Origin: Candidatus Saccharimonadota bacterium
Lineage (GTDB): Bacteria > Patescibacteriota > Patescibacteriia > 2-12-FULL-60-25
Length of the DNA stretch: 32,000 bases
Direction of reading: 5' to 3'
Assembly: GCA_963718585.1 (NCBI GenBank)
Contig: OY970357.1
Span: 960,001-992,000 of the forward strand
Positions 7,105 through 32,000 of the stretch are shown here, piece by piece. Below the pieces are notes generated by a model. It saw nothing but the letters and a program-made list of their open reading frames with translations. It had not been told where the DNA came from and searched no databases. How positions within the stretch are numbered: the stretch's first letter is position 1; every line of letters starts with the position of its first letter. A program made the translations under genes and the position numbers.

Positions 7105-7109
7105 ACCGT

Positions 7110-14926: not shown

Positions 14927-17395
14927 TTAGGGCTGTTGAACCTCGTTCAACTGCGGCGGACCGCTGATATTTTCCTTGACCGGCGGCGGGATCGCCGCGG
15001 CGGCGGGTTTCTTTTGCTGGTCACGCTCCTGTTGCAGTTGCGTGAGACGCTGATCGATCGTCTGGTTGTTCGGATTCGTCTCCTTCACCTTTTCGACCTG
15101 CGCAATGGCATCATCATACCGTCCCTGCTCCTCGTACAAGGCGGCTAGGAACCAGCGGGCATTCGCGTAATCCGGCTGAAGCGCCACGATCTGCTCAAAG
15201 AGGTTGAGCGCTTTGTCCTTCTGCCCATCGCGGTAGTACAAGATCCCGAGCTGGAACCCGACCCCGACATCTTTGTTGTTGACCTGCAGGACCTGCTCCA
15301 TCTTGGAGATCGCATCCTTGATCTTGCCCTGCCGTTCGTACAGGATCGCGAGGTTGTAGTGTGCAGGCGCATAGTCACTCTTGAGGGAGATCGCCTGGTT
15401 CAGTGCGGCCGCAGCTTGATCGAGTTCCGCGGTCGAGCTCGCTTGAGCTGCTGCCTTGACCGACGCATCCGTCGAAGTGAGAAGTGTCTGGTACGCATCC
15501 GATCGTAGGATGTGAAGCTTCCCGATCTCGTTGTAGAACGCGGGATTGGTGGGCTCACGCTTGAGCGCCTCTTGATAGTTCGTGATCGCGAACTCATCCG
15601 CCCCACGTGTGAATGACGCGATCGACTGATAGACGACCGCAAGGTTGGACCAGTTATCGACGTTCGCCGGATTGATCTGCGTCGCTTTTTTCCCGGCATC
15701 GACCGCAGCAGCGACGAGAGTGTTCATCTCCTGCGCCGCACTCTGATCTGGATTCGTCTGCAGGATCTGTCCGACGCGGATAAGGTCTGCCTGCGATAGA
15801 TTCCGATAATAGACATCATTCAAGCGGTTCAATGCGACAGCGGAATTCAGCGTATCGATCGACTGCTGGATCGGCTTGCCGGCACGGAACGCCGACACGG
15901 CATTGGAATATTCCGTATCCGCGACCAATCGTTGACCGGCGAGCCAGGCGCCAGCGATCGCAAAGACCGCGATGACGATGAAGACCACAGAAAGGACGGT
16001 CATGCTCCGGCCGTTCTTTTGTCCGTCCCAATGGTAATTCCCGCGCGCGACGAGCGAAGCCAAAAGCGCAAGGAGGAACCAGAAGACGAAGTGATGCGAA
16101 AAGTTGTAGTTATACAGGAAGGCCACGAAGACCACGGTCATCCATCCGGTGAAGACCGTGAGATACGCCTGCCAGAGATCATCATTCCGTTCCTTCACGA
16201 GATGGACGGCACTCTTCACGATCCCGGAGAGGAGCAGGAGGATCCATAATGCGGTCCCGACGAGACCGACCATGGCGAGGAGCGAGAAGAAGGTCGAAAG
16301 ACCCCGCTCGAACCGGATCTGCCAGAACGGCGAAAGATTCACGACCGCAGAACGGTACTGCGAGTAATCATAGATCCATGTCCCCGGTCCGGAACCGAAC
16401 AACGGATGGTCTTGCAGGACCTGCTGGGCGATGCGCCATGAATGACTCGCGGATGGCGAGACTTCTGCCGGCAGATTGAGGTTGATCGGCGTCTTCCAGA
16501 TCAGAAGGGCGATGGAAAGCAGACACAGGAGACCGGGAATGATGATCTTGGTCGGGTGCGCGATCTTCCGTGAACGGAGGATGGTCAGACCCACGAGAAG
16601 GAGCATGCCGAAAAGCACCGCTGCCCACGTGACCCAAAAATCAACGACGAGCAAGAGCAGAGCCGAGATGATCAGCGTGGCCCATACCAAGACCTTCGCC
16701 GCCACGCTCCCCTTGCTCTTGCGCCCAAGGATGCATTTCTCATCCTTGCACCCCAAGACCATGAGCGACGCGGAAAGCACGAGCGGAATGGTCATGAACA
16801 CCGCAAGGGAATTGATCGTCCCCACAGAATTGAACGCTTTGGACGCACTGACGGACGTCATCCATCCAAGGGCGTACACGCCATTCATCTGGAGAAGACC
16901 GTACAAGCCGGCAACGACGCTTGAACCCAGGAACGCGAGAATCAGGTGGTAAAGTCGCGTCGTGTCACGGACGGCATTCGTCAGGATCAGATAGAAGACG
17001 ACGAATGCTGCGATGGATGCGAAGGCCCACTGCATCTGCCCGAAATTCCCGACCATCGACAGATACCGATCGACCGAGAAGAGGCTCGTCACCAGCCAAC
17101 CCAGACCAAAGAGCACGACGGCCAAGTGGAGCCAGGACCGCGAGAGGGAGAACGATCGTTCGACAAGGGCTTTCCCGAGCCACGCGATGAGCGCCACCAT
17201 GGTCACGATGACGAGGAGTGTCTGCTTATTGAGCTCTAGGACGTCGAGGGTCCAGGGCAACATCCACAACGGGATCAAAACGACCGTCAGGTAAAGACAG
17301 ACAGTCACGATGCGCCCAAGAAAACGGGAGAATCCGGTCTCTTTGTGCATCGGCCGTAGGGAGGACATGGCCTCTGAGATGGTTTGCGTATCCAT
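14927..17395 (-). CDS. Wzy_C (O-antigen ligase/polymerase-like) polytopic membrane protein with C-terminal TPR repeats, 822 aa
   Basis: About 12 TM segments. A post-loop motif, SHSWRIAQQVLQDHPLFGSGPGTW, is typical of the WaaL/Wzy/PglL family. The C-terminal ~330 aa contain clear TPR units (e.g. APAHYNLAILYERQGKIKDAISKMEQVLQVNNKD, GVGFQLGILYYRDGQKDKALNLFEQIVALQPDY, ANARWFLAALYEEQGRYDDAIAQVEKVKETNPNN). Confidence 0.75.
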   Translation of the reverse strand: MDTQTISEAMSSLRPMHKETGFSRFLGRIVTVCLYLTVVLIPLWMLPWTLDVLELNKQTLLVIVTMVALIAWLGKALVERSFSLSRSWLHLAVVLFGLGWLVTSLFSVDRYLSMVGNFGQMQWAFASIAAFVVFYLILTNAVRDTTRLYHLILAFLGSSVVAGLYGLLQMNGVYALGWMTSVSASKAFNSVGTINSLAVFMTIPLVLSASLMVLGCKDEKCILGRKSKGSVAAKVLVWATLIISALLLLVVDFWVTWAAVLFGMLLLVGLTILRSRKIAHPTKIIIPGLLCLLSIALLIWKTPINLNLPAEVSPSASHSWRIAQQVLQDHPLFGSGPGTWIYDYSQYRSAVVNLSPFWQIRFERGLSTFFSLLAMVGLVGTALWILLLLSGIVKSAVHLVKERNDDLWQAYLTVFTGWMTVVFVAFLYNYNFSHHFVFWFLLALLASLVARGNYHWDGQKNGRSMTVLSVVFIVIAVFAIAGAWLAGQRLVADTEYSNAVSAFRAGKPIQQSIDTLNSAVALNRLNDVYYRNLSQADLIRVGQILQTNPDQSAAQEMNTLVAAAVDAGKKATQINPANVDNWSNLAVVYQSIASFTRGADEFAITNYQEALKREPTNPAFYNEIGKLHILRSDAYQTLLTSTDASVKAAAQASSTAELDQAAAALNQAISLKSDYAPAHYNLAILYERQGKIKDAISKMEQVLQVNNKDVGVGFQLGILYYRDGQKDKALNLFEQIVALQPDYANARWFLAALYEEQGRYDDAIAQVEKVKETNPNNQTIDQRLTQLQQERDQQKKPAAAAIPPPVKENISGPPQLNEVQQP

Positions 17396-17487: not shown

Positions 17488-20400
17488 TTATGGCGTGGTC
17501 GAAGTCGTGCTTGTCGTTGAACCCGTCGAGCCGGAAGACGTGGTCGTGGAGGACCCAGGCGGCGGAGGTGCGACCGGATCGCCTGAAGTCGGGTCGATCT
17601 CCGTATAGGTATTGTCGGAATTGGTGAGGACCGTCCCGCTCGGCGTGGCCTCTGCCGTCCAGCTGAAGAGGACGTCGTGATTTTCCGCCGCAGCCAAGTT
17701 GATCGTGAATCCACTATCCGTCTGGTTCGAGATCCACCAGTCTCCGGCCTGACCGACCGGCGTCGCGAGGATCATCGGATAGGCTTGGATCGTATCGAAG
17801 CTGACCGTCACTTCCTGTGACCCTGCGAAGATCTTCGCAAATCCCTTCCGGATCACGGTCGAACCCGTCGAACCGGAGCCACTCGATGCGCCGGAAGCGG
17901 ATGCACCGTTCCATTCCACATGGACGTACGCGATGACTGATGTCACGGCCGTCCCCTGCATATCCTGCATCGCCACACCCACGACCGGACCCGGGCCTGT
18001 CGCCTTCATTGCAATGCCAGGTTGAGAGGACGGGGTCAGCATATCGCCCGCATGCACCGGCCCGTTCTCGTCAGACACCTTGGTCGGGACACGTCCCGAA
18101 AGGGCGATCGGATACGAGCTTGTCGCATTGTTGCCGGCGAGAAAGCCCGGGCGCGTCGAGACGATCCCCAAGATGTTCTGTTCATATGCGGAAGTCGATT
18201 TCTTTACGCCTTGCGGGAGGGTCGGATCCAACACGACGATGTCCCCTGGTTCCAATGTTTCACTCGACGGGAACATTTCCGCGAAGTCATAGGAGCCCGT
18301 GCCCCACCCGGCCGCGTTCGTTCGCATATAGTCTCCGAACAATCCGGAACTTCCATCGTAGAAGATATATTTATTGTATTGCAGATTCCCGCGATCGGAC
18401 GGGTAGAGCTTACCGCTGATTGCCAGGTCGCCGAGCGGCGAGACGGTCAGGATGTTCGTGTCCGTCGCATTGCTCGTCATGGCAAAGTAGGACGTCGTCG
18501 CAGACTGCATGTCCGCATACAGGTTGAACTGGCTTGTGATGACGCTCGAGGACGCACTGTCCCACGCGGATCCGCGGAAGCTGAAGAGCGGCGAGTCCAC
18601 GGTCGTGACCGTCGAGGTCGCGACGGTCGTCGACGCATTCGTGAGGTCGCCGATGAGGAGCGAACCCGTCTCATTCGAGATGAAGAGGTCGCCAGCCCAC
18701 CAATGCGGACTCACATAGACCATCATGGTGCCGGTCCCGGAAGAGAGCGGCTCCATGGCCATGCCGAGCACCATGCCCGGGCCTTTGGCCTTCACGGCCG
18801 ACCCATCCGTCCCCATCATCAGCTCATCGCCGATGCTGATCGAAGATGTCGTCGCATCCACCTTGGTCTCAAGTTGGCCCAAGAGACCGACGAGCGTCGC
18901 AGATGCATCATTCTCCAATTGACCCATACCCGTGACGACCGGACGCGCAGAGATGACGCCAAGCGTATATTTCCGCAGACTCTCATCGCCCAACGTCGCA
19001 GATGTCGCGCTCGTCGGATCGAGAGCCATGACATTCCCCGCACCATATGCCCCCTGATCTGACGTGAAATATTCCGCGTAGTCACCACCTGACCCGATCG
19101 TCCCGTTGTCGGCGTACAACTGCCCGTTACACCGGATCGAGACCGCGTCATCAAGATTTACAGTCGACGTCGCGAAGCCTGCGATCCTTCTATTCACGGA
19201 CGAGGTACCACCACAATTAGAGACCACGCGAAGGGCGCCGTAGGAAGAACTCGCATTCCCATAGATCGCGACCTCGTCATTGAACATTGCTCCCTGGGCG
19301 GTCAGCGATCCGATCGTCGAAATATCCCCGAAGCTCGTGATGTCCCCGCGGACGCTGAATGCACCCGTGTCAAGAGAGGAGAACTGCCCCGCACTTGCCT
19401 CGATGCCGCCCATCTCATAAATGGACAGGCTCGGATCCGATGAGTTCGCACTGATGCCGACGTAGACATACCGTCCGTCAACGTCGACGTCTGTAAGTGA
19501 TGAAATGCCACCATACGTCTCATCCGTCGTCTTGATCAATTTCGGATCCAGCGGCTGTGTGATGTCGTAGATCTTCATCACATTCGTATTGGTCCCGACG
19601 AAGAGGAGGTTCCCATGAGGGACCGCCGCATAGATGTTCGGGATGCCCACCGCCGTCGCAAAATGCGGACTTTGGGAGTTTGATATGTCAACGATAACAA
19701 GCTCGTTGTGGGAATTGTTGACCATATATGCATACCGTCCCTGGACATGATCAACCAATGCATTGGAAGGGAAGATAAGAAATTGGGTACCTACGATCTT
19801 CAAATTTTCTGGATCTGAGATATCAACGATATCAAGGACTCCGGTCCCGTTAGACACATAGGCATATCTCCCCTGGACATCCATTGAAGACCAGGTTCCG
19901 GAGCTTGGGGAGAGACCCGTATATGCCATGGGATGCTTCGGATCGGAGATATTGATCGGATAGATCTTATTGACATTCGTATTGATACCGATGAGCATCC
20001 GCCCATGGAACTGCATATAGCTCAGGGCACCTGTCCCATTCGCCGTCGAACTCAGGAGCTCCGGATTCGACGGATCAGAAATGTCATAGATATTGATGTA
20101 ATGATTGCAATCCGCCGCGACAAGCGTCCCTTGGACGGCCAAAGACGTCGGACTCACTCCACACGCCGTACTTGAAATGACCACGGGGTTGGTAGGATCG
20201 TGGACGTCGGCGATCTTGAGGACACCGTCTGACTGGGTTAGATAAACGAGATATCGTCCTGAGACCTTCAAACCTCGCACGAGCTGACCTGGTGATGAGA
20301 AAGCATTCCCATCATAGACGGTCGAGGCGTAGACATGCGTGAAGGTGTCATTGATCTTGATCTTCGATGCACCGATCCCTCCAGTAGCCTGGATCGATCC

Positions 20401-23400
20401 GCCGACATTCAATGCACCGTTCACGGCCAGATCGTTTTGGATATATCCATCGCCGTCGACTTGAAGCTGCCCGAGATCAGCGGAATGTGCGATAAGGCCA
20501 TTGACTTCTTCGCCATGGATATCATAGATCTCGAATCGAGGTTCTGCATTACCGACATACAGGTCGCGACCCTTTACGAAGATCGATTGAGGGGTGGCGC
20601 CAACCGTTTGGTTCCGACTGATCAAAATCGGATTTGATGGATCTTGGACGTCGATGACATCTACTTCTTTCACACCGGACCCATGGACCGTGACGTACGC
20701 ATATCGACCCGCCAAACTGATTCCCGCGGGATCAGCGGCAAATGTTATGAGTCCTGTCGTGGATGTAGTCGGGTTCGTCGGATCAGTGATGTCATACGAG
20801 ACAAATCGATGCGTACCGGACTCAATAACGTAAATGTGAGAACCTTCGACAGCTAAACCCTCCGCTCCAGACGTTCCATACAAGGCTTTCGTTGAAACCA
20901 ACGTCGGTCGTTCTGGATCTGAGATATCCACGACCAACAACTGTCCGTAGAAATTATCTCCGACGTAGAGATAGTTCCCCTGCGTGGTCATGTCCTTAAA
21001 TCGCACGGACGAACTGAAATTCGTAGACGTGACGAAGCTAGGCAACGCAGGATCGGTAACATCGAAAACGTACAGACTTCCTATACTTTGCCCCACATAC
21101 GCATAATGCCCCTTGATCTCGACGGAATCCGCTCCAGAGACCGAGGTGGTCGCAACCGTTTGAGGAGCATAGGGGTCACGAATATCAATGATGCGCAGAT
21201 CCCCTTCCGAAACGTCAGCGATATAGGCATACCCCGCGCTGATCCGCATCTTCTGCGGTGAGATGCCGGCATTCACCGATGTCACATACGTTGGATTTGC
21301 AGGGTCTCTGACATTGAAAATATCCAATTCATGGTTGCCGTTGCTCAGCGCGTAGGCGAAGTCACCGACCACCCGCACCGTGCGATAGTCATATCCTGTG
21401 TCCAAACCGGTCGTCCAGTTCCCAAGGCGAGTAAGTGTCGAACTCGTCTGGAGGATGTTGGAGATATCCCCCGCGACCGTCAGACTCTTTCCGATCCCGA
21501 CGGAGCCGAGCGTGGAGATCCCCCCACCGACGGAGATCCCGCCATTCACAGAAATGCCGTTTTGGAACGTTGCTTGGCCATCTACTTGCAACGTGCCGAC
21601 CTCCGCGGAATGCGCGGTGAGACTACTCACTTCCGTTCCTCCGATGGTGAAGATATCGATGCGTGCGACGGTCGCCGTCTCATCGGTACCGATGTAGAGA
21701 CGCCGCCCACTGACGGCCACAGACTGTGCACCGTTCCCCGCATACGTCGAGACGGTCGTGATCAACGTTGGCGAGGTATCCGAGTTGAGATCGACCACAT
21801 CGACTTCTTTCGCTCCTGACTGGTTGATACTGACGTATGCATACCGTCCTGAGACCGTGACATCGGTCGGAGCGCCATTGAGGGATGCGGTCCCCTTCAA
21901 AGAAGGCAATGCAGGATTGGAGATGCTGTAGACCGCGAGGGAGTTAGAGCTCGTCTCGGCGACATACACCCGTGAGCCGGCGATACTGATCGCCTTCCCC
22001 CCCGACGAACCTCCGAGAGCCGTCGTATGCGCAAGGGTGGGATTCTTCGGATCTCGGATATCGATCGTATCCAGATTTCCATTGAAATCATCGCTGACGT
22101 AGAGATACCCGCCTTGGACGACCATGTCCGTATAATGAATAGACGATAATACCGTTGATGTCGTGACGAGCAAAGGCCCGCTCGGTGAAGAGATGTCGAA
22201 GACATACAGCCCGTTCAAACTGGTGCCGACAAATGCGTATTTACCTTGCACGGCGACAGATAGGGCGCCTGTGACGCTCGACGTGGAGACCGTGACGGGC
22301 GCATACGGATTTTGCAGATCGACTACCCTGAGATCAGCCGCAGCGAACTCTGCGATATAAGCGAGTCCACCCTGGACCGTCATATGTGTCGGTTGAGACC
22401 CAAGGCTCAACGAGTTGACCAACGCGGGTGATGAGGCATTCTTTACATCAAAGATCTGAAGCTGGGCTGTTCCGTAGTTCATCGCATAGAGATAGTCCCC
22501 CGCCGCGGTCATATCCCGGAAATCATCCCCAGCGAACGCGCCTCGCGTATATCCGCCCAAATGAGTGCCTGTCGAGTCGGACTGTAGGATGTTCTGGAAA
22601 TTTCCGTCGACACCCACAGTCGATCCCCGGAGGTTCGAGAGTGAATCGTTATATGGATTGTAAAACCAATTGGGGTCAGAGCTCGAACAGTTCGTCCCGT
22701 CCTCGAGACAGGCTCGTTTCCCATCGATCGTGAAATCTTTCGTGAACTGCGCGTTTCCGGTCACATTCAACTTCCCGATCTGAGCCGATTGAGCATTGAG
22801 TCCGTTGGTATCGACACCATTGACATCTACGACAACCAGGCTGTTCGTTCCGTCATTCTTACAACCGGTCCCGGTATCAGATAAACCAACGTATGCATAT
22901 CTCCCGTTAACATCTACATCGATGACCCGATAATCACTGGAGTCAAAGACAGCGTCTTTCCCGCCCGGATAATCATGAAGAACCTCGAACGGATTCGTCG
23001 AGCTTGCCACATCATACACATGCAACGCACCACGCGGTCCAGAGCCATTGCAATATGCACTATCTCCCGTATACAGATACCGGCCGGCAATGGACCCGCG
23101 GACATATGTCGACTGATAGCCCGTTCCCGCACTCCCTAATGCGACGATATTCGTTGAGCTGGCGACATTCAAAATATAGTATGCTCCCGCTCCTTGTCCC
23201 GGCAATATATATGCCAAGTCGTCTTGGATCTGCACATCAAACCCGCGTTCAGAATCCGGAGCCGACCATGTTCCTGCGAGGATTGGGTTCGTGGGATCGC
23301 TGATATCCACGATCTGGAGGGTCGTACTGAACCCCGTGACATATGCACGATCCCCGGAGATGGTCACATCCCCATTGGTATCAAGACCGGTCAGATGACC

Positions 23401-26400
23401 GACAAGACTGAATGTAGACGTTGAGACATCGAAGATGGATAAGGCACTGGAGCCGAGCACGTAGACATAATGACCTTGCGCCGCGACGTATCGCGCGCTG
23501 ATCGAATTATCAGTCGTATCACCGACGACCGTGCTCGTCGTTGGATGATAGGGATCAGTGATATCCACCCCCATCACAGCACGACGGTCTCCGTAGGTGA
23601 AATAGGCGTGGTTTCCAAGCACCGCCATGTCGCCGAGCCCCTTGGACGTGGATGTCACCACCGTGTCCGACGTTGAGCTGACGGTCCCGTCGAGATCTGC
23701 ATGGAAGATCTGGAGCGTATTGCTCGCCGTCAGGACATACACATAACTGTTCTGGTATTGAACTTTGACCGGGGAACCATCTATGGTCGTTGACACGTTT
23801 GAGAACGTATCATTGGAGATGAGCGTGTTATTGATATCGCCCCCGAACTTCACGTCCACCGTACTCGTCACGGTCTCAAGCGTGCTAGATGCTCCATTAT
23901 AGGTCCAATACAACGCGCGCGGCGGACAATTCGTCTCATCTTTCAGACAGACGCTGACGCCACCGACCGTGAGGCCGAGACTATATTCTCCACGCGTCGC
24001 GGATGTCGCTCCGAGGAAGGTTGAAGTGCCGGATCCGTTCACGGTCAGGAGCTTGGTCGTTTTTATGTCATTCAGGAAGGTTGACGTCACGCTGGAGCCA
24101 GCCGTGAATGCGCCATCCGTATACAATCCGCCGCGACCGATCGTCGCACTCCCCCGGACCACGATATCCCCTCCGACATTCGCATCCCCATTGACGCCGA
24201 GCTGACCGATCTGCGCATTATGTGCGATGAGTCCGTTCGTCTCGATCCCCGTACCTAGGTCAATGACGTCGAAAGGAGTGGATCCATAGTTGATAGCATA
24301 GAGATACCGGCCATTCGCCGTGACCGTATAATACCCGTATGGGTTCGAAAAGGAATTTGCGATGACCGGTCGTGTCGAAGACGAGACATCAATGATGTCG
24401 ATCCCATGTCCGGACAGATTCCCATACAATGCCGCGTAGACATACCGTCCACTCGCATAGATATCGTCAGGAAATACTTGAGACGTCGTCACCTGACCGA
24501 CCACGCTCGGTGAAGATGTTGAGGAGATATCGATGACCGCGATCGTCCCAGACGTATAGTTGTCAACATATGCGAAATGTCCTTGGAGGGCCATGCTCCA
24601 AGCGCCAGGAGCGTCGCCGGTGTACTGATCCGTGTGGACCGAGGAGACCCACCGCATGTTGTTCGGATTCGAGACATCGAAGGTCTCCATCACATCCGAC
24701 CCCTGCGAGATCACATAGGCAAGACCGTTCCGGACGCGGATATCACGCGGCGTAGAGCTGACCGCGGTAGATGAAACGACCTGCATGCTTGCCGGATTGC
24801 TGATATCGACCGAATACAGCTTGTTCGTCGAATTATTGACGATGTAGGCATACCGACCCTCAACATCGATCGCCTGCAATCCGCCGGCAATACTGAGATC
24901 TCCGACCCGATAAGGGTTCGTTGGATCTGATACATCGATGGCTTGGAACATGGTCGCGCCAGCATTATTATCCTGGACGATGTACACATAGTTTCCATCG
25001 ACCTTGAACATATGCGGAACACAGGTACTACATCCGCCAAAGAAAGTATTAGAGATGACGGACGTCGACGATGGCTTTGAAATGTCGTAGATGATCAAGC
25101 GACCAGCGCCGGCGGTGAAGGCGAGATCCCCCTGGATCTGGATGCCGCGCTGAGTGCCATTCGAGGTGGAAACACTCCGCACGGTCGTAAAGGCCGTCGT
25201 ACTTGTCGGCAGGGCGTCTAAATGCCCTGTGACATCGATCGTTTGTCCCGATAAGGTCGGTGACAAGGTTCCATCCGCATTCGTCGTCCATAGGCATCCC
25301 GTGCCGTCAGCGGTACACACCCGCTGTCCGCGCACGGTCAGGTCATTCCCGATGGCGACATTTCCTCCGACCATGAGTCTATTCCCGATGGTCAGATCGC
25401 GATTGATATTCTGATCATCGACGCTCAGGTTCCCGATGTTCGCGGTCGAGATCTTCGCACCCTGCAGATCGATGACATAGAGACCGCTCGAGCCTGTACC
25501 GACGTAGGCATACTTTCCGGACACAGTGATATCCATCGGCGTCGTGCCCCCGGTCGATGTCGTTGTAAGCAGCGTCGGATTCGTCCGATCCGAAACATCC
25601 ACGATGGCGATCTTCCCGTTCCCTACGATGTACGCATAGTCGCCGGACACGACGATGTCTTTCCGTTGACCACTCCCTCCGGTGATCCCCGTCTTTGAGA
25701 CGACGAGCGTCGGGACCGTCGAGCTGGAGATATCAAAGATGTTCAACTGATCCGACCAATTCTCGACATACGCATATCGTCCATCGACATACACATGATT
25801 GGTGTCCACGGAGCTGAAGGTCGGTGTGCTCACGATCGTCGGGTTGAGCGGATCCGAGATGTCGACGACCTCAAAGTGCTTCCCACCGACCCCAAGGGCG
25901 AGATAGGCGTAGTCTCCCCGGATATCAAGACCATAGGCGTAGCTCCCCGAGAGCGTCGCGACGACCGTCGGACTTGCCGGGTCCGAGATGTCGATGACCT
26001 TCATGCCGTCTAAATAATTTGCAACATACGCATATGTGCCCTTGATCCGGATCTGATCGACTTGACGGCTCAGACCGACCGAGCCCATATTCACCGGATG
26101 CGCAGGATCCGAGATGTCGATGACTTTAAATCCATACGAGCTGGAGTGCTCACCTACATAGGCATAATTCCCCGCGACGGCGATCTGCTCAATATCCGTA
26201 AAGCCCGTGGACGTCCCGACAACCACGGGAAGAGCCGGGTTCGAAATGTCGATCGCATAGAAGTTCGTTCCTCCTGCGGCGTACAGGTATTTATTCTGGA
26301 CCGCCGTTCCATAGACCGACCCTGTCCCGTTCGGAATAAGATTAGCCACACCGAGTGGGTTGCTGGGACTATTGACGCTCAATGAACCACCAAGCAACAC

Positions 26401-29400
26401 GTTCTGAGTACTGGTTCCGGTCGTCAGATAATCGCCCGCGCCGTTGTACGTCCAGTCAGGCGACGCACTTGAACAATTCGTCCCGTCCTGGAGACAAACG
26501 GCCTGACCCTTCACCGTCAACCCACCGGCGAACGATGAGGTCACGGATCCGAGGGAGGCGAGCGACGGGACAGAGAAGGTCGAGGGAGTGAATGTGAAAG
26601 CCGTTCCGCCAAACTTTACGTTATCGAGGAAACCAGCATTGAGGCCTGAGGAAGCGCTCGGATCCTTCGCATACATCCATCGGAACGTATGTGCGCCGGG
26701 TCCGACAGAGCCGGTCACGGTCGTCCAGCTCACGAGGCCGCTGATCCGTGACGTATACCCGGCCGTGCGTGTGCAGGCGTCATTATCAAGGCAGAAAAGG
26801 AGATAATCGAAACCTGATTCTGAGCTGACCTGCCAATCGAAACTGTACGTCGTTGTCGCAGAAAACGCTTGCTGGGTTTCTAAGTATGAAGATTGGTTAT
26901 CCGTGATGGGCCCGCTCGTCGCGGACGCGAAACCATCGGTCGACGTGGTCGTGATCCGTCCCCAAGGGAGATTGCCACCCGTCGTCCACCCGCTCGGTGG
27001 GAACGTCGATCCTTCAAAACTCTCCTTTGACTGAGTCGTGACATATCCGTCGCCATAATGCGTGGGACCAGACCCGACCACGAGCTCCCCATTTGTATAC
27101 ACGCTGGATGCAGAACCGATGTTCCCTCCCACGAAGAGGTCATTCCCATTCAGACTGAACGCCGAATCCATGAATGAGGCAGATGAGGACGTCCCACCGA
27201 TCACCACGTTCGTGTTCGTACTGTAGCCGAAGTAGACATTGGATGTTCCGACGGTTCCGCCGGAAAGGTCGAAGTACGCGGCCGCTCCCGCGGTCGAGGT
27301 ATTCGCCGCACCGAGCACGAGGTCGGTCGTCGCGGTCGCGTTATGGACAAAATTACCCGTGGGACTGAAGGTCCAGTTGAGATCCGCCGTGCTGGTGCCT
27401 GAGGAACCGGATACGGTCTGACAATTCGTCCCGTCCGAAAGACACACATTCACATCTTTCACCGTCAGATCCCCCTCGAAATTCCACAAGGTCGTTGAAC
27501 TTGAGATGAAGGAAAATTTATCTTCTGACGTATTGAATGACACGTTATCGACATTCCCTGCGTTTCGGAACAATAAGTTGCTACTATCCGTCGAAAACAG
27601 CCACCGGAACGTATGTGTCCCAGCGGCGACCGTCCCGCTTACGCTCGCCCACTGTGTTTGACCGCTGATCCGATAGGTATACCCCGATGCACTTGTACAC
27701 GCATCGTTATCCAGACAAAAACTCAAGTAATCAAAGTTGGTCTCAGAACTGACTTCCCAGTCGAAACTGTATGTCGACGTCGCGGGGAAGGTCTTCTGAA
27801 CTTCCAAGTAGGTCGATTGATTGTTGTTGATGAAACTACTTGAGGCAGAGGCGATCCCATCTGTCGATGTCGCCGTCGTCCGTGCCCAGACCGCGTCGCC
27901 GCCCGTCGTCCAGTCGGAGCTCGGCGGGAACGTCGACCCTTCGAAACTCTCCGAGATCGTCACCGGGACCAAATGGGCTTCAGCGCTGGAAATATATCCA
28001 TTCCCGTAATGGGTCGATCCATTCCCAGCCACGAACTCTCCATTCGTATAGACACTGCTCGCAGATCCAATGTTCCCACCGACAAAGAGGTCATTCCCAT
28101 TTAAGGAGAATGCCGGATTCATAAAGCCGACGGTCGTGGATGATCCACCGATCACGACATTCGTATTCGTGCTGTAGCCGAAATACACGGTAGACGTTCC
28201 CGCCGTACCTCCGGAAAGGTCGAAGTAACCCGCCGCACCAGCCGTCGACGTGTTCGCGGCGCCAAGGACAATGTCCGTCGTCGCCGTCGCGTTGGAAACG
28301 TAATCACCTGTTCCGTTGTAGGTCCAGTTCAGGTCCGTCGTGCTTCCGCCTCCTCCGCCGGTACAGTTCGTCCCGTCCGCAAGACAGACGAGCTTCCCTC
28401 CGACGGTGAGCCGATTTGAGACTTCCGCATTCGTGGTCGACACGGCAAAGGCGAATGTCGATGTTGCCGTTCGTGATCCAGCGGTGATCGCCCCATCGGT
28501 ATAGATCCCTCCGATACCGGCACTTAGTGCACCGTTGACGGAGAAGTTTCCTGAGACCCACCCACTCCCATCAACGCGAAGCGATCCAAGCTCAGCATTT
28601 GCCGCAACGAGTCCGGACGTTTCCGTTCCGAGAATATCAACGATGGAAAGGCTGTTGGCCGCAGTATTCGAGATATACGCATACCGACCGGAGATGACGA
28701 TCCCCTTCGGGGTTGATGCGGTCGTTGTAGCCGCCAAATGGACCGGACTTCCCGGAACCGAGACATCAAGGACGTCCAATCCGCCATTCGACTGGGTGAT
28801 ATAAACATATCTTCCAGACACCGCGATCCCTTCCGGATAATCCGTATAATAGGTGCTTGAAGCGATGGTCGGTGAAGTGGGATCCGTGACTTTGATGATG
28901 TCGACATCATTATTCAAGAATCCCGCAACATAGGCATAAGCCCCTTGGACCGCGATCCCCTGCGGATTGGTCGTTGGGAGCAATACCGAACCAACGATGG
29001 ACGGAGACAGTGGATCGCTGATATCGATCACAGTGACATACGAAGTCCCTGAATTGATCGCGTAAAGATACTTCCCCTGGACCGCAAGTCCGATCGCTCC
29101 GCTCAACGTGACAGATGTTGCAACGGTTGGATTCAACGGATCCTTAATGTCAAAGATCTCGATCCTATTATTACCAGCGGCAAATGCGTAATTCCCCTGG
29201 ACCGTCAGATCTCCCGTCGCCGTGATGGTCGTAGAGGCAACATCTACGAGTGACGAGGGATTCGAGATGTCATACACGATCAGATGTGTCCCGCAGGTAC
29301 CTAGATTCGTCAGATACGCATACTTCCCGCGCACCGCAATGGATTTGGCATTACAATACGTATTCGCGGTAAGGATATTGATCGGTGTTATGGGATCCGT

Positions 29401-31977
29401 TGCATTGAAGACCTCCAGACCGCCGGAATTCGCGTCGATCGGCACGTAGACATACCGTCCGTCGACCGCGGCTCGTTGCGGTGTATTGATGAGGCCTGTC
29501 GTTGAGATCACACGCATGACCGTATCCGTCGCCATCGTATTGTCGATATCCGAATGAACGCGAACGGAAGCGGTGCTCGTCACGGGGGACAACGTATTCG
29601 TCGTTCCGTTGTATGACCAATTCGGTGTCGTAGATCCGCAGTTCGTCCCATCTGCAAGACACACGGATTGTCCACCGACGGTGGTGTTCGATGAGAGCGT
29701 CGCAGCGCTGGATACGACGAGATTGGTGGATGAGGCCGTACCGACGACCGTCAGATCTCCGCCGGTCGAGATCGAACCGACCGCATATATCCGATCTCCG
29801 GACGTGATCCCGTTACGGACGTAGAGATGCTGCGCGATATCCGCATCACCCAAGACACTCAACGAACCGAGATTCGCCGAATGGGCGATGAGTCCGTTGG
29901 TCTCGATCCCGGAGATGTCGATCACCGAGACGGTGTCGTCCCCCGTGTTCGCGACATAGAGATACCGTCCTTGGATGGTGATGCCATCGGGAGAAGTTCC
30001 GACCGTGATCGTGCTTACGACGACGGGATTCGTCGGATCCGCGAGATCGACCACAGAAACCGTTCCATCCCCCGAATTCGTGATATATGCATACCGTCCG
30101 CTCAAGGCGACTCGGGACGGGGTTGAACCAACAGCTACCGTCGCCGTCAGGACCGGATCCGTCGAGCTCGCGATATCGACCACGGCCAAAGTGCTGGAAC
30201 CGCTGTTGACGACATAGGCGTACTCACCGGAGTACGCGACATCCGTCGGAGCCGCGCCGCTCCCGAGGGACAACGTGCCAAGAACGGATGCATCCGTGGG
30301 ATCAGAACTCAGAATCATGAATGAATCGGATCCGTAACCCGTGACCAGGAGCTCGGGACCGTCTGCCGCAACCCCACGGGGGATCGTCCCACCACTGAAC
30401 GTCGTCGATGACGCGATGAAGGGTGCGCTTGGTTTGGAAATATCGACGACGTTGAGTTTATCACCATCAAGAGTGATATACGCGTACTGCCCCTGGATCG
30501 CGACACGTCGAGGATCCGTCATCCCAATGCCCGTAAGCACCGTCGGCGTCGAGGGGTCTGCAAGATCCATCGTTGCGATCGTTACGGCATTTTGGGCGGT
30601 GATGACCGCAACGCGCTCCGTGACGGCGATATCCGTGGTGCCGATCGACGAGTAGGTGAATGCCCCGAGCGCCTCCGGCTTCGACGGGTCGGTGATGTCG
30701 TAGGTCTGGATCGTATTTGTCGCGGCCAAGTAACCGAACGTTCCTTTCGGGACGAACTTCACTGGAAATGTCGCGGCCGCTGTGGTCGTCACGGTCGTGA
30801 ACGATTGTCCCGTCTCCAAGATGTTCTGGACGTTTCCGACGACAGTCAGTTTTGCGGCTGACGACGTCGCTGTGCCGATCACGACACGCGTGTCCGTGTT
30901 GTACCCAAAATAAGCGGTCGAGACACCCGTTGTGCCGCCGGACAGGTCGAAGTAGATCGGCGCGCCTGCCGTCGAGGTATCCGCCGCGCCAAGGACGACA
31001 TCCGTGGTCGCCGTCGCATTGTGCACGAAGTCCCCGGACGCATCATATGTCCAATTGAGGTCGAATCCCCCACTTGAGGCCGTGCAGTTCGTCCCGTCCG
31101 CAAGACAGACGAGCTGACCTTGGACCGTCAACGATGAACCCGATGCAGAAGTGAAGGCGAGTGTCGTCGCCGTCGCCTCGGTCGCGGTGAGGAAACTCGA
31201 TGTCAGATTGGTCACGACCCCATTCGTCGCGAACAGGTTCGTCGTTGTTGCAGATGTACCGGTTGCAAAGGTATAGGTCAAAGTCTGAAGATCTGCCGTT
31301 CCGGTCGATGTCAACCGGCTTCCCACAAGGACCCCCCCATATGCGTAGATCAGATCCGTCGTATTGTCTCCATTGTCTGTGATCGTTTGGAGTGTCGCGG
31401 TCGTCGCCGGCGCGCCGCCTGTGATCGCCGTCCCGTTGACGTAGAGATTCGTCGTCGAGACCGTGGTCGCCCCCAACCAACTCGATGTTGCGTTCGTAAA
31501 CACCGCGTTGGTCGATGAGACGGTCGTCGCAATGACGTTCGTCGACGTCACCGTCCCGACATTGAGCCCAAGCCATCGCAAGCTGGCCGAACCGAGCGAA
31601 TAGGTCAGATCCGCCACTGGCAAGACATCCGTGTTGATGTGCCCATTCAGCGCGATCAGATCAGACGCACCGGAACCCAAGGTCGTACTCCCCTGGATAT
31701 CGAGATTTCCGGTAGACGTGACGCTGCCATTCCGGGAAATACTGAACACATTGGTCGCCCCAGCGAATCCTTGAACGAGGAAGTCATTACTGTCCGACGT
31801 CCCATCCGTCTGTACGACGAGCGCGGTCCGGGTCGCGGCCGCGGCATCGGCGGTCGTTTGATGGACCGCAAAGAGGGATCCACCCGCGGACGTGATCGAA
31901 GATGACGCGTATTGGCCCTGCAACTGTTCTGCGTTGAATGCATTTGGGACGGACGAAAGACGCTTTCGGGGCGTCAT
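17488..31977 (-). CDS. Giant LVIVD-repeat surface/fibre protein, at least 4,829 aa (frame remains open upstream to the window edge at 32000)
   Basis: Single uninterrupted ORF in the track. Its parts are: a tail-fibre-like N-terminus; 8 blocks of 7 LVIVD-like blades; 8 VCLADGTNC loops; 2 beta-sandwich modules; 2 DYAEYF/YDFAEMF-type C-terminal modules; and an S/T-rich tail. Codons upstream of ATG 31977 (..TVGSDSE-M) contain no stop before nt 32000, so the true start may lie outside the window. Confidence 0.9.
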   Translation of the reverse strand: MTPRKRLSSVPNAFNAEQLQGQYASSSITSAGGSLFAVHQTTADAAAATRTALVVQTDGTSDSNDFLVQGFAGATNVFSISRNGSVTSTGNLDIQGSTTLGSGASDLIALNGHINTDVLPVADLTYSLGSASLRWLGLNVGTVTSTNVIATTVSSTNAVFTNATSSWLGATTVSTTNLYVNGTAITGGAPATTATLQTITDNGDNTTDLIYAYGGVLVGSRLTSTGTADLQTLTYTFATGTSATTTNLFATNGVVTNLTSSFLTATEATATTLAFTSASGSSLTVQGQLVCLADGTNCTASSGGFDLNWTYDASGDFVHNATATTDVVLGAADTSTAGAPIYFDLSGGTTGVSTAYFGYNTDTRVVIGTATSSAAKLTVVGNVQNILETGQSFTTVTTTAAATFPVKFVPKGTFGYLAATNTIQTYDITDPSKPEALGAFTYSSIGTTDIAVTERVAVITAQNAVTIATMDLADPSTPTVLTGIGMTDPRRVAIQGQYAYITLDGDKLNVVDISKPSAPFIASSTTFSGGTIPRGVAADGPELLVTGYGSDSFMILSSDPTDASVLGTLSLGSGAAPTDVAYSGEYAYVVNSGSSTLAVVDIASSTDPVLTATVAVGSTPSRVALSGRYAYITNSGDGTVSVVDLADPTNPVVVSTITVGTSPDGITIQGRYLYVANTGDDTVSVIDISGIETNGLIAHSANLGSLSVLGDADIAQHLYVRNGITSGDRIYAVGSISTGGDLTVVGTASSTNLVVSSAATLSSNTTVGGQSVCLADGTNCGSTTPNWSYNGTTNTLSPVTSTASVRVHSDIDNTMATDTVMRVISTTGLINTPQRAAVDGRYVYVPIDANSGGLEVFNATDPITPINILTANTYCNAKSIAVRGKYAYLTNLGTCGTHLIVYDISNPSSLVDVASTTITATGDLTVQGNYAFAAGNNRIEIFDIKDPLNPTVATSVTLSGAIGLAVQGKYLYAINSGTSYVTVIDISDPLSPSIVGSVLLPTTNPQGIAVQGAYAYVAGFLNNDVDIIKVTDPTSPTIASSTYYTDYPEGIAVSGRYVYITQSNGGLDVLDVSVPGSPVHLAATTTASTPKGIVISGRYAYISNTAANSLSIVDILGTETSGLVAANAELGSLRVDGSGWVSGNFSVNGALSAGIGGIYTDGAITAGSRTATSTFAFAVSTTNAEVSNRLTVGGKLVCLADGTNCTGGGGGSTTDLNWTYNGTGDYVSNATATTDIVLGAANTSTAGAAGYFDLSGGTAGTSTVYFGYSTNTNVVIGGSSTTVGFMNPAFSLNGNDLFVGGNIGSASSVYTNGEFVAGNGSTHYGNGYISSAEAHLVPVTISESFEGSTFPPSSDWTTGGDAVWARTTATSTDGIASASSSFINNNQSTYLEVQKTFPATSTYSFDWEVSSETNFDYLSFCLDNDACTSASGYTYRISGQTQWASVSGTVAAGTHTFRWLFSTDSSNLLFRNAGNVDNVSFNTSEDKFSFISSSTTLWNFEGDLTVKDVNVCLSDGTNCQTVSGSSGTSTADLNWTFSPTGNFVHNATATTDLVLGAANTSTAGAAAYFDLSGGTVGTSNVYFGYSTNTNVVIGGTSSSASFMDSAFSLNGNDLFVGGNIGSASSVYTNGELVVGSGPTHYGDGYVTTQSKESFEGSTFPPSGWTTGGNLPWGRITTTSTDGFASATSGPITDNQSSYLETQQAFSATTTYSFDWQVSSESGFDYLLFCLDNDACTRTAGYTSRISGLVSWTTVTGSVGPGAHTFRWMYAKDPSASSGLNAGFLDNVKFGGTAFTFTPSTFSVPSLASLGSVTSSFAGGLTVKGQAVCLQDGTNCSSASPDWTYNGAGDYLTTGTSTQNVLLGGSLSVNSPSNPLGVANLIPNGTGSVYGTAVQNKYLYAAGGTNFYAIDISNPALPVVVGTSTGFTDIEQIAVAGNYAYVGEHSSSYGFKVIDISDPAHPVNMGSVGLSRQVDQIRIKGTYAYVANYLDGMKVIDISDPASPTVVATLSGSYAYGLDIRGDYAYLALGVGGKHFEVVDISDPLNPTIVSTPTFSSVDTNHVYVDGRYAYVENWSDQLNIFDISSSTVPTLVVSKTGITGGSGQRKDIVVSGDYAYIVGNGKIAIVDVSDRTNPTLLTTTSTGGTTPMDITVSGKYAYVGTGSSGLYVIDLQGAKISTANIGNLSVDDQNINRDLTIGNRLMVGGNVAIGNDLTVRGQRVCTADGTGCLWTTNADGTLSPTLSGQTIDVTGHLDALPTSTTAFTTVRSVSTSNGTQRGIQIQGDLAFTAGAGRLIIYDISKPSSTSVISNTFFGGCSTCVPHMFKVDGNYVYIVQDNNAGATMFQAIDVSDPTNPYRVGDLSIAGGLQAIDVEGRYAYIVNNSTNKLYSVDISNPASMQVVSSTAVSSTPRDIRVRNGLAYVISQGSDVMETFDVSNPNNMRWVSSVHTDQYTGDAPGAWSMALQGHFAYVDNYTSGTIAVIDISSTSSPSVVGQVTTSQVFPDDIYASGRYVYAALYGNLSGHGIDIIDVSSSTRPVIANSFSNPYGYYTVTANGRYLYAINYGSTPFDVIDLGTGIETNGLIAHNAQIGQLGVNGDANVGGDIVVRGSATIGRGGLYTDGAFTAGSSVTSTFLNDIKTTKLLTVNGSGTSTFLGATSATRGEYSLGLTVGGVSVCLKDETNCPPRALYWTYNGASSTLETVTSTVDVKFGGDINNTLISNDTFSNVSTTIDGSPVKVQYQNSYVYVLTASNTLQIFHADLDGTVSSTSDTVVTSTSKGLGDMAVLGNHAYFTYGDRRAVMGVDITDPYHPTTSTVVGDTTDNSISARYVAAQGHYVYVLGSSALSIFDVSTSTFSLVGHLTGLDTNGDVTISGDRAYVTGFSTTLQIVDISDPTNPILAGTWSAPDSERGFDVQIQDDLAYILPGQGAGAYYILNVASSTNIVALGSAGTGYQSTYVRGSIAGRYLYTGDSAYCNGSGPRGALHVYDVASSTNPFEVLHDYPGGKDAVFDSSDYRVIDVDVNGRYAYVGLSDTGTGCKNDGTNSLVVVDVNGVDTNGLNAQSAQIGKLNVTGNAQFTKDFTIDGKRACLEDGTNCSSSDPNWFYNPYNDSLSNLRGSTVGVDGNFQNILQSDSTGTHLGGYTRGAFAGDDFRDMTAAGDYLYAMNYGTAQLQIFDVKNASSPALVNSLSLGSQPTHMTVQGGLAYIAEFAAADLRVVDLQNPYAPVTVSTSSVTGALSVAVQGKYAFVGTSLNGLYVFDISSPSGPLLVTTSTVLSSIHYTDMVVQGGYLYVSDDFNGNLDTIDIRDPKNPTLAHTTALGGSSGGKAISIAGSRVYVAETSSNSLAVYSISNPALPSLKGTASLNGAPTDVTVSGRYAYVSINQSGAKEVDVVDLNSDTSPTLITTVSTYAGNGAQSVAVSGRRLYIGTDETATVARIDIFTIGGTEVSSLTAHSAEVGTLQVDGQATFQNGISVNGGISVGGGISTLGSVGIGKSLTVAGDISNILQTSSTLTRLGNWTTGLDTGYDYRTVRVVGDFAYALSNGNHELDIFNVRDPANPTYVTSVNAGISPQKMRISAGYAYIADVSEGDLRIIDIRDPYAPQTVATTSVSGADSVEIKGHYAYVGQSIGSLYVFDVTDPALPSFVTSTNFSSSVRFKDMTTQGNYLYVGDNFYGQLLVVDISDPERPTLVSTKALYGTSGAEGLAVEGSHIYVIESGTHRFVSYDITDPTNPTTSTTGLITFAADPAGISLAGRYAYVTVHGSGVKEVDVIDVQDPSNPILISRNQTVGATPQSIFVKGRDLYVGNAEPRFEIYDIHGEEVNGLIAHSADLGQLQVDGDGYIQNDLAVNGALNVGGSIQATGGIGASKIKINDTFTHVYASTVYDGNAFSSPGQLVRGLKVSGRYLVYLTQSDGVLKIADVHDPTNPVVISSTACGVSPTSLAVQGTLVAADCNHYINIYDISDPSNPELLSSTANGTGALSYMQFHGRMLIGINTNVNKIYPINISDPKHPMAYTGLSPSSGTWSSMDVQGRYAYVSNGTGVLDIVDISDPENLKIVGTQFLIFPSNALVDHVQGRYAYMVNNSHNELVIVDISNSQSPHFATAVGIPNIYAAVPHGNLLFVGTNTNVMKIYDITQPLDPKLIKTTDETYGGISSLTDVDVDGRYVYVGISANSSDPSLSIYEMGGIEASAGQFSSLDTGAFSVRGDITSFGDISTIGSLTAQGAMFNDEVAIYGNASSSYGALRVVSNCGGTSSVNRRIAGFATSTVNLDDAVSIRCNGQLYADNGTIGSGGDYAEYFTSDQGAYGAGNVMALDPTSATSATLGDESLRKYTLGVISARPVVTGMGQLENDASATLVGLLGQLETKVDATTSSISIGDELMMGTDGSAVKAKGPGMVLGMAMEPLSSGTGTMMVYVSPHWWAGDLFISNETGSLLIGDLTNASTTVATSTVTTVDSPLFSFRGSAWDSASSSVITSQFNLYADMQSATTSYFAMTSNATDTNILTVSPLGDLAISGKLYPSDRGNLQYNKYIFYDGSSGLFGDYMRTNAAGWGTGSYDFAEMFPSSETLEPGDIVVLDPTLPQGVKKSTSAYEQNILGIVSTRPGFLAGNNATSSYPIALSGRVPTKVSDENGPVHAGDMLTPSSQPGIAMKATGPGPVVGVAMQDMQGTAVTSVIAYVHVEWNGASASGASSGSGSTGSTVIRKGFAKIFAGSQEVTVSFDTIQAYPMILATPVGQAGDWWISNQTDSGFTINLAAAENHDVLFSWTAEATPSGTVLTNSDNTYTEIDPTSGDPVAPPPPGSSTTTSSGSTGSTTSTTSTTP
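17650..17855 (-). other. Terminal small beta-sandwich-like domain, followed by an S/T/P-rich low-complexity tail (17491..17649)
   Basis: VIRKGFAKIFAGSQEVTVSFDTIQAYPMILATPVGQAGDWWISNQTDSGFTINLAAAENHDVLFSWTAEA, then ...PPPPGSSTTTSSGSTGSTTSTTSTTP. Any resemblance to H-type-lectin-like fibre tips is from memory only. Confidence 0.35.
17910..18297 (-). other. C-terminal module 2, a paralogue of module 1 (Peptidase_G2/IMC-like)
   Basis: GSYDFAEMFPSSETLEPGDIVVLDPTLPQGVKKSTSAYEQNILGIVSTRPGFLAGN...GDMLTPSSQPGIAMKATGPGPVVGVAMQDM...VIAYVHVEW. It is colinear with module 1. Confidence 0.5.
18690..19089 (-). other. C-terminal module 1 resembling the phage Peptidase_G2 / intramolecular-chaperone autoproteolytic domain
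   Basis: GGDYAEYFTSDQGAYGAGNVMALDP...LRKYTLGVISARPVVTG...GDELMMGTDGSAVKAKGPGMVLGMAMEP...MVYVSPHWW. As I recall the family pattern, it is (ADYAE[YM]FEW..., G.FV.L.G.KI..A, ILGVVSA.P...G). Not verified by search. Confidence 0.5.
19405..20340 (-). repeat. LVIVD-type beta-propeller module 8 of 8 (7 blades)
   Basis: Blade ends: ADVHDPTNP, YDISDPSNP, INISDPKHP, VDISDPENL, VDISNSQSP, YDITQPLDP, and exit YEMGGIEASAGQFSSLDTGAFSV. Confidence 0.65.
20515..21430 (-). repeat. LVIVD-type beta-propeller module 7 of 8 (7 blades)
   Basis: Blade ends: FNVRDPANP, IDIRDPYAP, FDVTDPALP, VDISDPERP, YDITDPTNP, IDVQDPSNP, and exit YDIHGEEVNGLIAHSADLGQLQV. Confidence 0.65.
21640..22560 (-). repeat. LVIVD-type beta-propeller module 6 of 8 (7 blades); colinear paralogue of module 7
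   Basis: Blade ends: FDVKNASSP, VDLQNPYAP, FDISSPSGP, IDIRDPKNP, YSISNPALP, VDLNSDTSP, and exit IDIFTIGGTEVSSLTAHSAEVGTLQV. Confidence 0.65.
22825..23790 (-). repeat. LVIVD-type beta-propeller module 5 of 8 (7 blades, most degenerate); boundaries approximate
   Basis: Blade ends: IFHADLDGT, VDITDPYHP, FDVSTSTFS, VDISDPTNP, LNVASSTNI, YDVASSTNP, and exit VDVNGVDTNGLNAQSAQIGKLNV. Confidence 0.55.
24255..25190 (-). repeat. LVIVD-type beta-propeller module 4 of 8 (7 blades); boundaries approximate
   Basis: Blade ends: YDISKPSST, IDVSDPTNP, VDISNPASM, FDVSNPNNM, IDISSTSSP, IDVSSSTRP, and exit IDLGTGIETNGLIAHNAQIGQLGV. Confidence 0.65.
25465..26360 (-). repeat. LVIVD-type beta-propeller module 3 of 8 (7 blades); boundaries approximate
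   Basis: Blade ends: IDISNPALP, IDISDPAHP, IDISDPASP, VDISDPLNP, FDISSSTVP, VDVSDRTNP, and exit IDLQGAKISTANIGNLSV. Confidence 0.65.
26500..28389 (-). repeat. In-frame tandem duplication inside the giant gene: two ~315-aa units (27448..28389 and 26500..27447)
   Basis: Each unit has the same parts in the same order: VCL(A/S)DGTNC; DLNWT(Y/F)...HNATATTD(I/L)VLGAANTSTAGAA.YFDLSGGT.GTS.VYFGYSTNTNVVIGG; an identical run FSLNGNDLFVGGNIGSASSVYTNGE; and ESFEGSTFPPS..WTTGG...FDY L.FCLDNDACT...HTFRW...DNV.F. The protein copies are highly similar, while the DNA copies have diverged. Confidence 0.85.
28635..29500 (-). repeat. LVIVD-type beta-propeller module 2 of 8 (7 blades); boundaries approximate
   Basis: Blade ends: FNATDPITP, YDISNPSSL, FDIKDPLNP, IDISDPLSP, IKVTDPTSP, LDVSVPGSP, and exit VDILGTETSGLVAANAELGSLRV (28561..28660). 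Confidence 0.65.
29911..30800 (-). repeat. LVIVD-type beta-propeller module 1 of 8 (7 blades); boundaries approximate
   Basis: Blade ends: YDITDPSKP, MDLADPSTP, VDISKPSAP, ILSSDPTDA, VDIASSTDP, VDLADPTNP, and exit IDISGIETNGLIAH (29881..29940). Confidence 0.65.
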
Positions 31978-32000
31978 TTCCGAATCCGAGCCGACGGTCA

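Follow-up and report, generated by a model that had tools for sequence, protein, structure and literature searches.

The window analysed here, a 32,000-nucleotide stretch comprising positions 960,001 to 992,000 of contig OY970357.1 from a Candidatus Saccharimonadota bacterium (assembly GCA_963718585.1), carries on its minus strand a giant open reading frame (ORF; 17488-31977) whose C-terminal end is the subject of this report. The frame is still open at base 32000, with its 5' part beyond the window edge, and it encodes the last 4,829 of 4,967 residues of a secreted protein. The database protein P0087 (4,967 aa) matches the window ORF without a difference across its 4,829 residues and adds 138 N-terminal residues, which hold a signal peptide and most of a domain distantly resembling the N-terminal domain of the mosaic adhesive trimer (MAT) fibres of Bdellovibrio. 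Residue numbers below are those of the window ORF, to which 138 is added for full-length P0087. The complete protein begins with a typical Sec signal peptide, the sole hydrophobic segment in the whole chain, and continues through the MAT-like N-terminal domain and about 4,100 residues made up of LVIVD beta-propellers and the segments that join them (28 LVIVD repeats plus beta-propeller matches in the window ORF) to a C-terminal cassette containing two modules akin to the self-cleaving chaperone of phage phi29 gp12.

The cassette consists, in order, of module A (18685-19128; aa 4284-4431), a 117-aa spacer domain (18334-18684; aa 4432-4548), module B (17899-18333; aa 4549-4693), a 12-aa Ser/Gly-rich linker (ASGASSGSGSTG; 17863-17898), a 92-aa tip domain (17587-17862; aa 4706-4797) and a 32-aa low-complexity Pro/Ser/Thr tail (17491-17586), all on the minus strand and followed by the stop codon at 17488-17490. 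Searched with a hidden Markov model (HMM) of 106 family modules, the whole protein yields two copies and no more, scoring 113 bits for module A and 205 bits for module B, and the two are 31% identical over 130 residues, far beyond chance (BLASTP E=1e-15). There are 398 residues downstream of module A and 136 downstream of module B. The AlphaFold2 model of the cassette has a mean predicted local distance difference test score (pLDDT) of 88.2 (82.6 for module A alone); the all-beta spacer stands at about 85-90, the tip is an eight-stranded beta-sandwich with values above 90, and the linker falls below 50 at model residues 410-420.

An earlier note on this DNA had described two colinear modules of about 130 aa in tandem, followed by a tip domain of about 70 aa and the tail. 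Its reading of the motifs was exact: GGDYAEYF lies at 19089 and GSYDFAEMF at 18297, and the segments GNVMALDP/GDIVVLDP, TLGVISARP/ILGIVSTRP and GDELMMG.../GDMLTPS..., as well as the tail GSSTTTSSGSTGSTTSTTSTTP, are all present. The modules are homologous, each being about 145 aa in length; what had been overlooked is the conserved, well-folded spacer between them, and the tip is larger than described, at about 92 aa and with eight beta-strands in the model.

The same note had proposed a kinship with Peptidase_G2 and phi29 gp12, and this is supported by several kinds of search. The region with both modules matches Pfam PF11962 (Peptidase_G2) at 30.0-30.4 bits, above the gathering cut-off of 25. 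When a profile of 25 modules was run against all PDB sequences, only six sequences from three proteins were retrieved, namely phi29 gp12 (the best, E=1.3e-5), D4, the chaperone domain of the tail-spike Dpo31 (E=1.4e-5), and the base at the N-terminus of gp8.5, the phi29 head fibre (E=1.6e-5). Alignment of the module profile with gp12 residues 680-854 by hhalign gives a probability of 93.6% (E=2e-7) over 52 columns that span the gp12 cleavage site. At the level of fold, the cassette model searched against the PDB with Foldseek ranks pre-mature gp12 (3SUC) first; for module A modelled alone, the best template modelling (TM) scores are those of 3suc (query-normalised TM, TMq, 0.57), 3gqh_A (0.56/0.55) and the HFTV1 decoration protein (0.55/0.67), and many capsid cement and decoration trimers follow in the ranking. 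Among predicted viral structures (BFVD) there are 80 matches at E<=1e-3, including proteins named 'Preneck appendage protein' (target-normalised TM, TMt, 0.68) and proteins of uncultured phages that superpose with a root-mean-square deviation of 2.0-2.2 Å at 25-29% identity. For three phage proteins in BFVD (A0A2L0UZK3, A0A6J5T4G1 and A0A6J5T215) the alignment to the cassette model extends across 330-542 columns, far more than one module.

On the strength of the Pfam score, the PDB profile search, hhalign and the fold matches, the assignment of modules A and B to the phi29 gp12/Peptidase_G2 auto-chaperone lineage, as compact relatives, is largely right. The window protein has no match to Peptidase_S74 (PF13884), the endosialidase-type chaperone with the catalytic motif S-D-x-x-x-K, or to Phage_cement_2 (PF09956). 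NCBIfam holds no model for the cassette, a PHROGs scan returned weak and mixed matches ('head scaffolding', head fibre and tail fibre), and literature searches on Peptidase_G2, gp12 Ser691/Asp692, LVIVD proteins in Patescibacteria and intramolecular chaperones of the candidate phyla radiation (CPR) yielded nothing relevant.

Compared with gp12 D4 (PF11962; 3SUC, 3GQH, 3GQK) and Dpo31 D4 (28nb), the modules share a D-x-A-E motif that marks their N-terminal boundary and lines up with gp12 D692 and E695, and then a G(D/E)hVhh strand, an hGhhS..PGF segment and an hhGLhGQh/ALAGRVP strand, together with the same beta fold (TM 0.55-0.57) and a location downstream of a fibre or spike. They differ in length from gp12 (about 145 aa against 163) and lack its insertion of about 50 residues (SSFEWQ...RSQRRE). 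Unlike both D4 domains, they occur here as two internal copies with further domains after them, in a secreted cellular protein. The cement and decoration trimers (PF09956; the gp8.5 N-terminal base, 6QYY; BB1, Pam3, HFTV1 and TW1) share the fold and the C-terminal-half motif GD.L....G.A....G..hG.A, but they lack D-x-A-E, are not parts of fibres and bind capsids. In the modules this segment, GD.L....G.A.KA..G..hG.A, lies at about 17930-18060 and 18720-18840 on the minus strand and is the part that matches the gp8.5 base (22-28 bits) and Phage_cement_2, the N-terminal half being the part that matches gp12. This division of likeness within one module suggests a common origin for the gp12 chaperone domain and the trimers of capsid cement or of the head-fibre base, and it forms a continuum of sequence and fold between the two groups.

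The solved relatives are trimers, every one. The D4 domain of gp12 is described as an auto-chaperone that aids trimer formation, and that of Dpo31 forms trimers on its own and is no longer present once the protein has matured (PMC13317679); the gp8.5 base is likewise a homotrimer (PMC6542822). By homology, modules A and B would be expected to be trimeric as well.

We considered where such a module might be cut. In the PDB, the mature gp12 fragments (3GQ7 and others) end in ...GGNTWS, the released domain (3GQH/3GQK) begins with DFAEYFES, and the entry for the uncleaved precursor, 3SUC, reads DFAQYFES, that is, E695Q; the chain ends and the start of the released domain thus place the gp12 cleavage site between S691 and D692. 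The ADYAE(Y/M)FEW-like motif given in the earlier note is essentially this site, WS/DFAEYFES (the slash marking the cut). Both GG/DYAEYF of module A and SY/DFAEMF of module B are in register with it, their Asp and Glu aligning with gp12 D692 and E695, and the predicted self-cleavage bonds are accordingly G4298-D4299 at the D-Y-A-E motif of module A (19072-19083, minus strand) and Y4563-D4564 at the D-F-A-E motif of module B (18277-18288, minus strand).

Conservation at these positions is nearly complete. Across 106 modules from 87 proteins the Asp is present in 102/105, the Ala in 104/106 and the Glu in 104/106, and it holds separately for modules of type A (Asp 27/27, Glu 28/28) and of type B (Asp 34/36, Glu 35/36). 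In the 70 genomes, each representing a species, that have complete pairs, 70/70 A-modules contain D-x-A-E; the 70/70 B-modules that also carry it form a biased count, as the scan pattern contained DFAEMFPS, the 25-module alignment having been too divergent for the locus scan and replaced by one of module B only. The residue preceding the motif Asp is variable (G, A, S, F or Y), and the stretch just before the motif of module B, MRTNA.GW.TGSY, shows little or no variation. In gp8.5, a relative in fold that does not cleave, the motif is missing.

The family to which the cassette belongs is very large, with 20,495 clusters at 50% identity for E<=1e-3 (9,354 at E<=1e-10) and proteins of up to 6,814 aa. 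At least 570 loci of Patescibacteria type were found among species-representative genomes; the best 80 come from Uhrbacteria, Patescibacteria and Parcubacteria records and from metagenome-assembled genomes labelled 'bacterium' or 'uncultured Gammaproteobacteria'. The 'uncultured Gammaproteobacteria bacterium' records that carry the cassette have chromosomes of about 0.9-1.0 Mb (for example OZ246416.1, 886 kb, with locus L010, and OZ246408.1, 1.0 Mb, with locus L011), and their title is probably either a generic one or mistaken. Two cassette genes (L024 and L072) lie together on contig JACPHX010000016.1.

Two modules were present in 40/87 first-round homologues, many of the others being from truncated contigs. 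In the 80 genome loci, 74 of the 82 module-bearing ORF segments have the tandem, and in every one of these except one, which extends to the end of its locus, module B has at least 216 residues downstream of it; two or three matched stretches are seen in 149 of the best 150 cluster representatives. In the paralogues P0028, P0045, P0048 and P0051 a Peptidase_S74 domain occupies the exact position of module A, and the spacer, module B and tip come after it as in the giant protein, so that two unrelated self-cleaving chaperone types are interchangeable there. The near-invariance of the Asp and Glu at both positions in hundreds of independent sequences, combined with the exchange of module A for a chaperone type of proven self-cleavage, is the strongest argument that catalysis has been retained, and the motif conservation suggests that both D-x-A-E sites may be self-cleaved.

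Viral relatives are arranged differently. A tblastn search with module A alone against 50,697 phage genomes returned nothing at E<=0.01; the family consensus did find phage relatives, among them structural proteins of jumbo and other phages (Pseudomonas phage PA5oct gp359, which was detected in virions by mass spectrometry according to its record, Agrobacterium phage Atu_ph07 gp176 and Campylobacter phages of CP220 type) as well as 76 IMG/VR loci. These compact phage modules resemble those of the giant protein in lacking the gp12 insertion, in scoring 77-85 bits with the module HMM and in having D-x-A-E, and Pfam misses them too in Atu_ph07 gp176 and PA5oct gp359. In contrast to the bacterial modules, to which they are 27-44% identical, they are always single and terminal: in 86/86 viral ORFs one module ends 0-1 residues before the stop codon, with D-x-A-E kept in all, and in Atu_ph07 gp176 the HMM finds one terminal module only. 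Similarity to the viral proteins sets in at query residue 16-18, level with the motif Asp (residue 18) or slightly ahead of it. The doubled, embedded layout is typical of the Patescibacteria-type group and is not seen in viruses. Thus the view that two such modules in tandem would be unusual is right with respect to viruses and wrong within the family itself.

Conservation of the spacer extends to 75 relatives, in which its modal lengths are 122-128 aa, and its C-terminal stretch LYPSDRG..Q..KYI.YDG is conserved and runs into module B; an HMM of the 75 members found no sequence relatives in phage proteins and none elsewhere in the giant protein. The tip is H-type-lectin-like in its modelled fold only. 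With the whole cassette as query, Foldseek places the tip on Helix pomatia agglutinin (2ccv; probability 1.00, TMt 0.51, E 0.26), with further matches to 3wmp (SLL-2) and 4q56, and the likeness to H-type lectins lies in the small beta-sandwich (probability 0.98-1.00, TMt about 0.5). Unlike those lectins, the tip has no sequence-profile match: together with 14 orthologous tips it gave no hit to H_lectin (PF09458) or any other Pfam family at E<=10, and a 14-member tip profile run against PDB sequences found no lectin and nothing relevant. The C-terminal tails of all relatives are of low complexity and rich in Ser, Thr, Pro and Glu, with no hydrophobic or sorting motif.

The closest cellular parallel is provided by the MAT fibres of Bdellovibrio bacteriovorus, described by Caulton et al. 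(2024; PMC10769870) as trimeric fibres that are secreted and stand on the cell surface. They have a conserved domain of about 130 aa after the signal peptide, thought to adjoin the cell, and swappable C-terminal tips, and 13/21 of them end in a self-cleaving S74 chaperone whose cleavage is blocked by S782A (PMC10769870). NCBIfam NF053851 (Bdello_MAT_N) is matched not only by the N-terminal domain of P0087 but also by 7/8 other family members (E 1.3e-9 to 1e-2), and paralogue ends are swapped here too, with S74 against module A and two kinds of tip. Common to both systems are the cellular setting, a signal peptide followed by a beta-rich N-domain of about 130 aa that may be related in the two (weak, repeated profile matches), a long fibre, a mosaic C-terminus with a phage-type chaperone, self-cleaving in the MAT fibres and predicted to be so here, and many paralogues with swapped ends. 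The differences are that the MAT chaperone is of S74 type, single and terminal, whereas here it is of G2 type, doubled and internal; that the body here is built from LVIVD beta-propellers, at about five times the length; that the MAT fibres belong to a deltaproteobacterial predator rather than a Patescibacterium; and that the N-domain match here is far under the family cut-off. The giant protein looks like a distant, far larger counterpart of the MAT fibres that uses a gp12-type chaperone.

We suggest that the region is probably a C-terminal cassette for assembling a giant surface protein that is secreted, resembles a phage fibre and belongs to a bacterium of Uhrbacteria/Patescibacteria type, with assembly coupled to self-cleavage. 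After Sec export, modules A and B would set the register of three chains and nucleate their trimerisation from the C-terminal end; once a correct trimer had formed, each module would cut its own N-terminal boundary at D-x-A-E, at G4298-D4299 and Y4563-D4564. The precursor would in this way give rise to the mature fibre, a piece made of module A and the spacer, and a piece made of module B, the tip and the tail. Trimerisation is here argued from homology and cleavage from the motif, and the pieces might stay attached to one another or separate.

Several observations weigh against this proposal. Taken alone, each module falls below the Pfam cut-off of 25 (20.7 bits for A and 16.6 bits for B, at profile positions 45-101 of 228), and the sequence similarity to gp12 is limited to the first 55 residues or so past the cleavage site. 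The fold resembles non-cleaving capsid cement and decoration proteins as well as it does gp12, half of the module sequence is as close to non-cleaving cement proteins as to gp12, and Phage_cement_2 is matched in 6/55 relatives. The MAT-like assignment of P0087 aa 33-113 (full-length numbering, outside the window) scores 25.2 bits (E=1.2e-5) with NF053851, for which the cut-off is 60. The modules are internal, in contrast to the always-terminal viral ones, and therefore a simple removal of a C-terminal chaperone in the manner of phi29 cannot be the whole story; moreover, a cut at module A would leave the fibre without its lectin-like tip, an odd outcome if the tip is the adhesin. Finally, release of the cleaved gp12 domain is reported to need ATP (Xiang 2009, to go by its citation in PMC13317679), and an ATP-dependent release cannot apply to the giant protein, since ATP is not available outside the cell.

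Alternatively, the modules could be permanent, non-cleaving trimer clamps of the cement or decoration kind, holding three chains together and displaying the lectin-like tip; D-x-A-E would then have been retained for its structural role. By E-value, the capsid trimers BB1, Pam3, HFTV1, TW1 and gp8.5 fit the fold as well as gp12 or better, and the clamp idea also draws on the gp8.5 and Phage_cement_2 matches noted above and on the internal position of the modules with a folded tip downstream. It is harder to reconcile with a D-x-A-E that is almost invariant at both positions in more than 170 modules and aligned with the very gp12 site at which 3SUC has E695Q, with the absence of the motif from non-cleaving gp8.5, or with a self-cleaving S74 chaperone taking the place of module A in paralogues. 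We regard permanent clamping as a possible but doubtful account of the cassette.

A different purpose for cleavage is conceivable. The eukaryotic protein MyRF has an internal S74 domain that is self-cleaving, and the cassette might by analogy be a release or maturation switch in which cleavage deliberately separates functional pieces, for example by shedding the fibre from a cell-bound C-terminal piece or by releasing a soluble trimeric unit of module B and the lectin. MyRF is a precedent for an internal self-cleaving chaperone domain (reference 15 of PMC10769870). The internal position, with about 266 residues beyond the second predicted cleavage site, is conserved in 74/82 genomic ORFs, and the two products that cleavage is predicted to give match in length (265 and 266 aa). 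Such a switch is nevertheless improbable in our estimation: a C-terminal membrane anchor or sorting motif is found in no relative, and the MAT_N-like N-domain argues that the N-terminus is the cell-proximal end. That the gene is a tail-fibre gene of a phage or prophage we consider extremely unlikely and have rejected on gene context and the signal peptide. The module does have relatives in PA5oct gp359, Atu_ph07 gp176 and 76 viral-contig loci, but the gene stands among ordinary cellular ones (for YchF, an ABC-F ATPase, a solute-binding protein, a nucleotidyl transferase and a GT2 glycosyltransferase), the product is a protein of 4,967 aa with a Sec signal peptide and LVIVD propellers, its kin number at least 570 loci in Patescibacteria-type genomes, and the viral copies are 27-43% identical and of different architecture.

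The assembly and self-cleavage proposal can be carried further, more speculatively. Patescibacteria may conceivably have turned a phage auto-chaperone into a two-step internal self-processing device that ends a large family of MAT-like trimeric fibres, with the unit of module B and tip as a detachable or separately acting host-binding piece; we think this extended form rather unlikely as it stands. If it were true, the precursor would be cut into three trimeric pieces at two sites and matured outside the cell without ATP, and the family, with more than 20,000 clusters and proteins of up to 6,800 aa, would be a main means by which these episymbionts attach to their hosts. Little is known about host attachment in the ultra-small Patescibacteria; the cassette makes a very large family of secreted, phage-fibre-like giant proteins in that group easy to recognise and links it to the Bdellovibrio MAT fibres, the only characterised cellular analogue. 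It also extends the gp12-type auto-chaperone, so far a terminal and disposable viral module, to an internal, duplicated and extracellular setting.

Some further features of the giant protein and its surroundings deserve mention. The protein is 23% Ser plus Thr. A short loop with two cysteines, C-x-x-[DE]-[GE]-T-[NG]-C (CLADGTNC in most cases), recurs eight times at intervals of 300-480 residues (31084-31107, 29638-29661, 28363-28386, 27421-27444, 26473-26496, 25294-25317, 23926-23949 and 22687-22710, all on the minus strand), and these loops appear to mark the boundaries of propeller blocks. A duplicated domain of about 138 aa (27538-27951 and 26608-27024, minus strand; ESFEGSTFPPS...FDYL.FCLDNDAC...) is distinct from the LVIVD propellers and has no Pfam match. 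On the same strand, 92 nt downstream of the giant ORF, lies a gene (14927-17395) whose product has about 13 hydrophobic segments, a membrane part with no Pfam match, followed by C-terminal TPR repeats, a layout reminiscent of membrane glycosyltransferases or ligases. Further along the minus strand, a 278-aa ORF (6382-7218) gives a borderline T4SS_pilin match of 25.6 bits, against a cut-off of 26.6.

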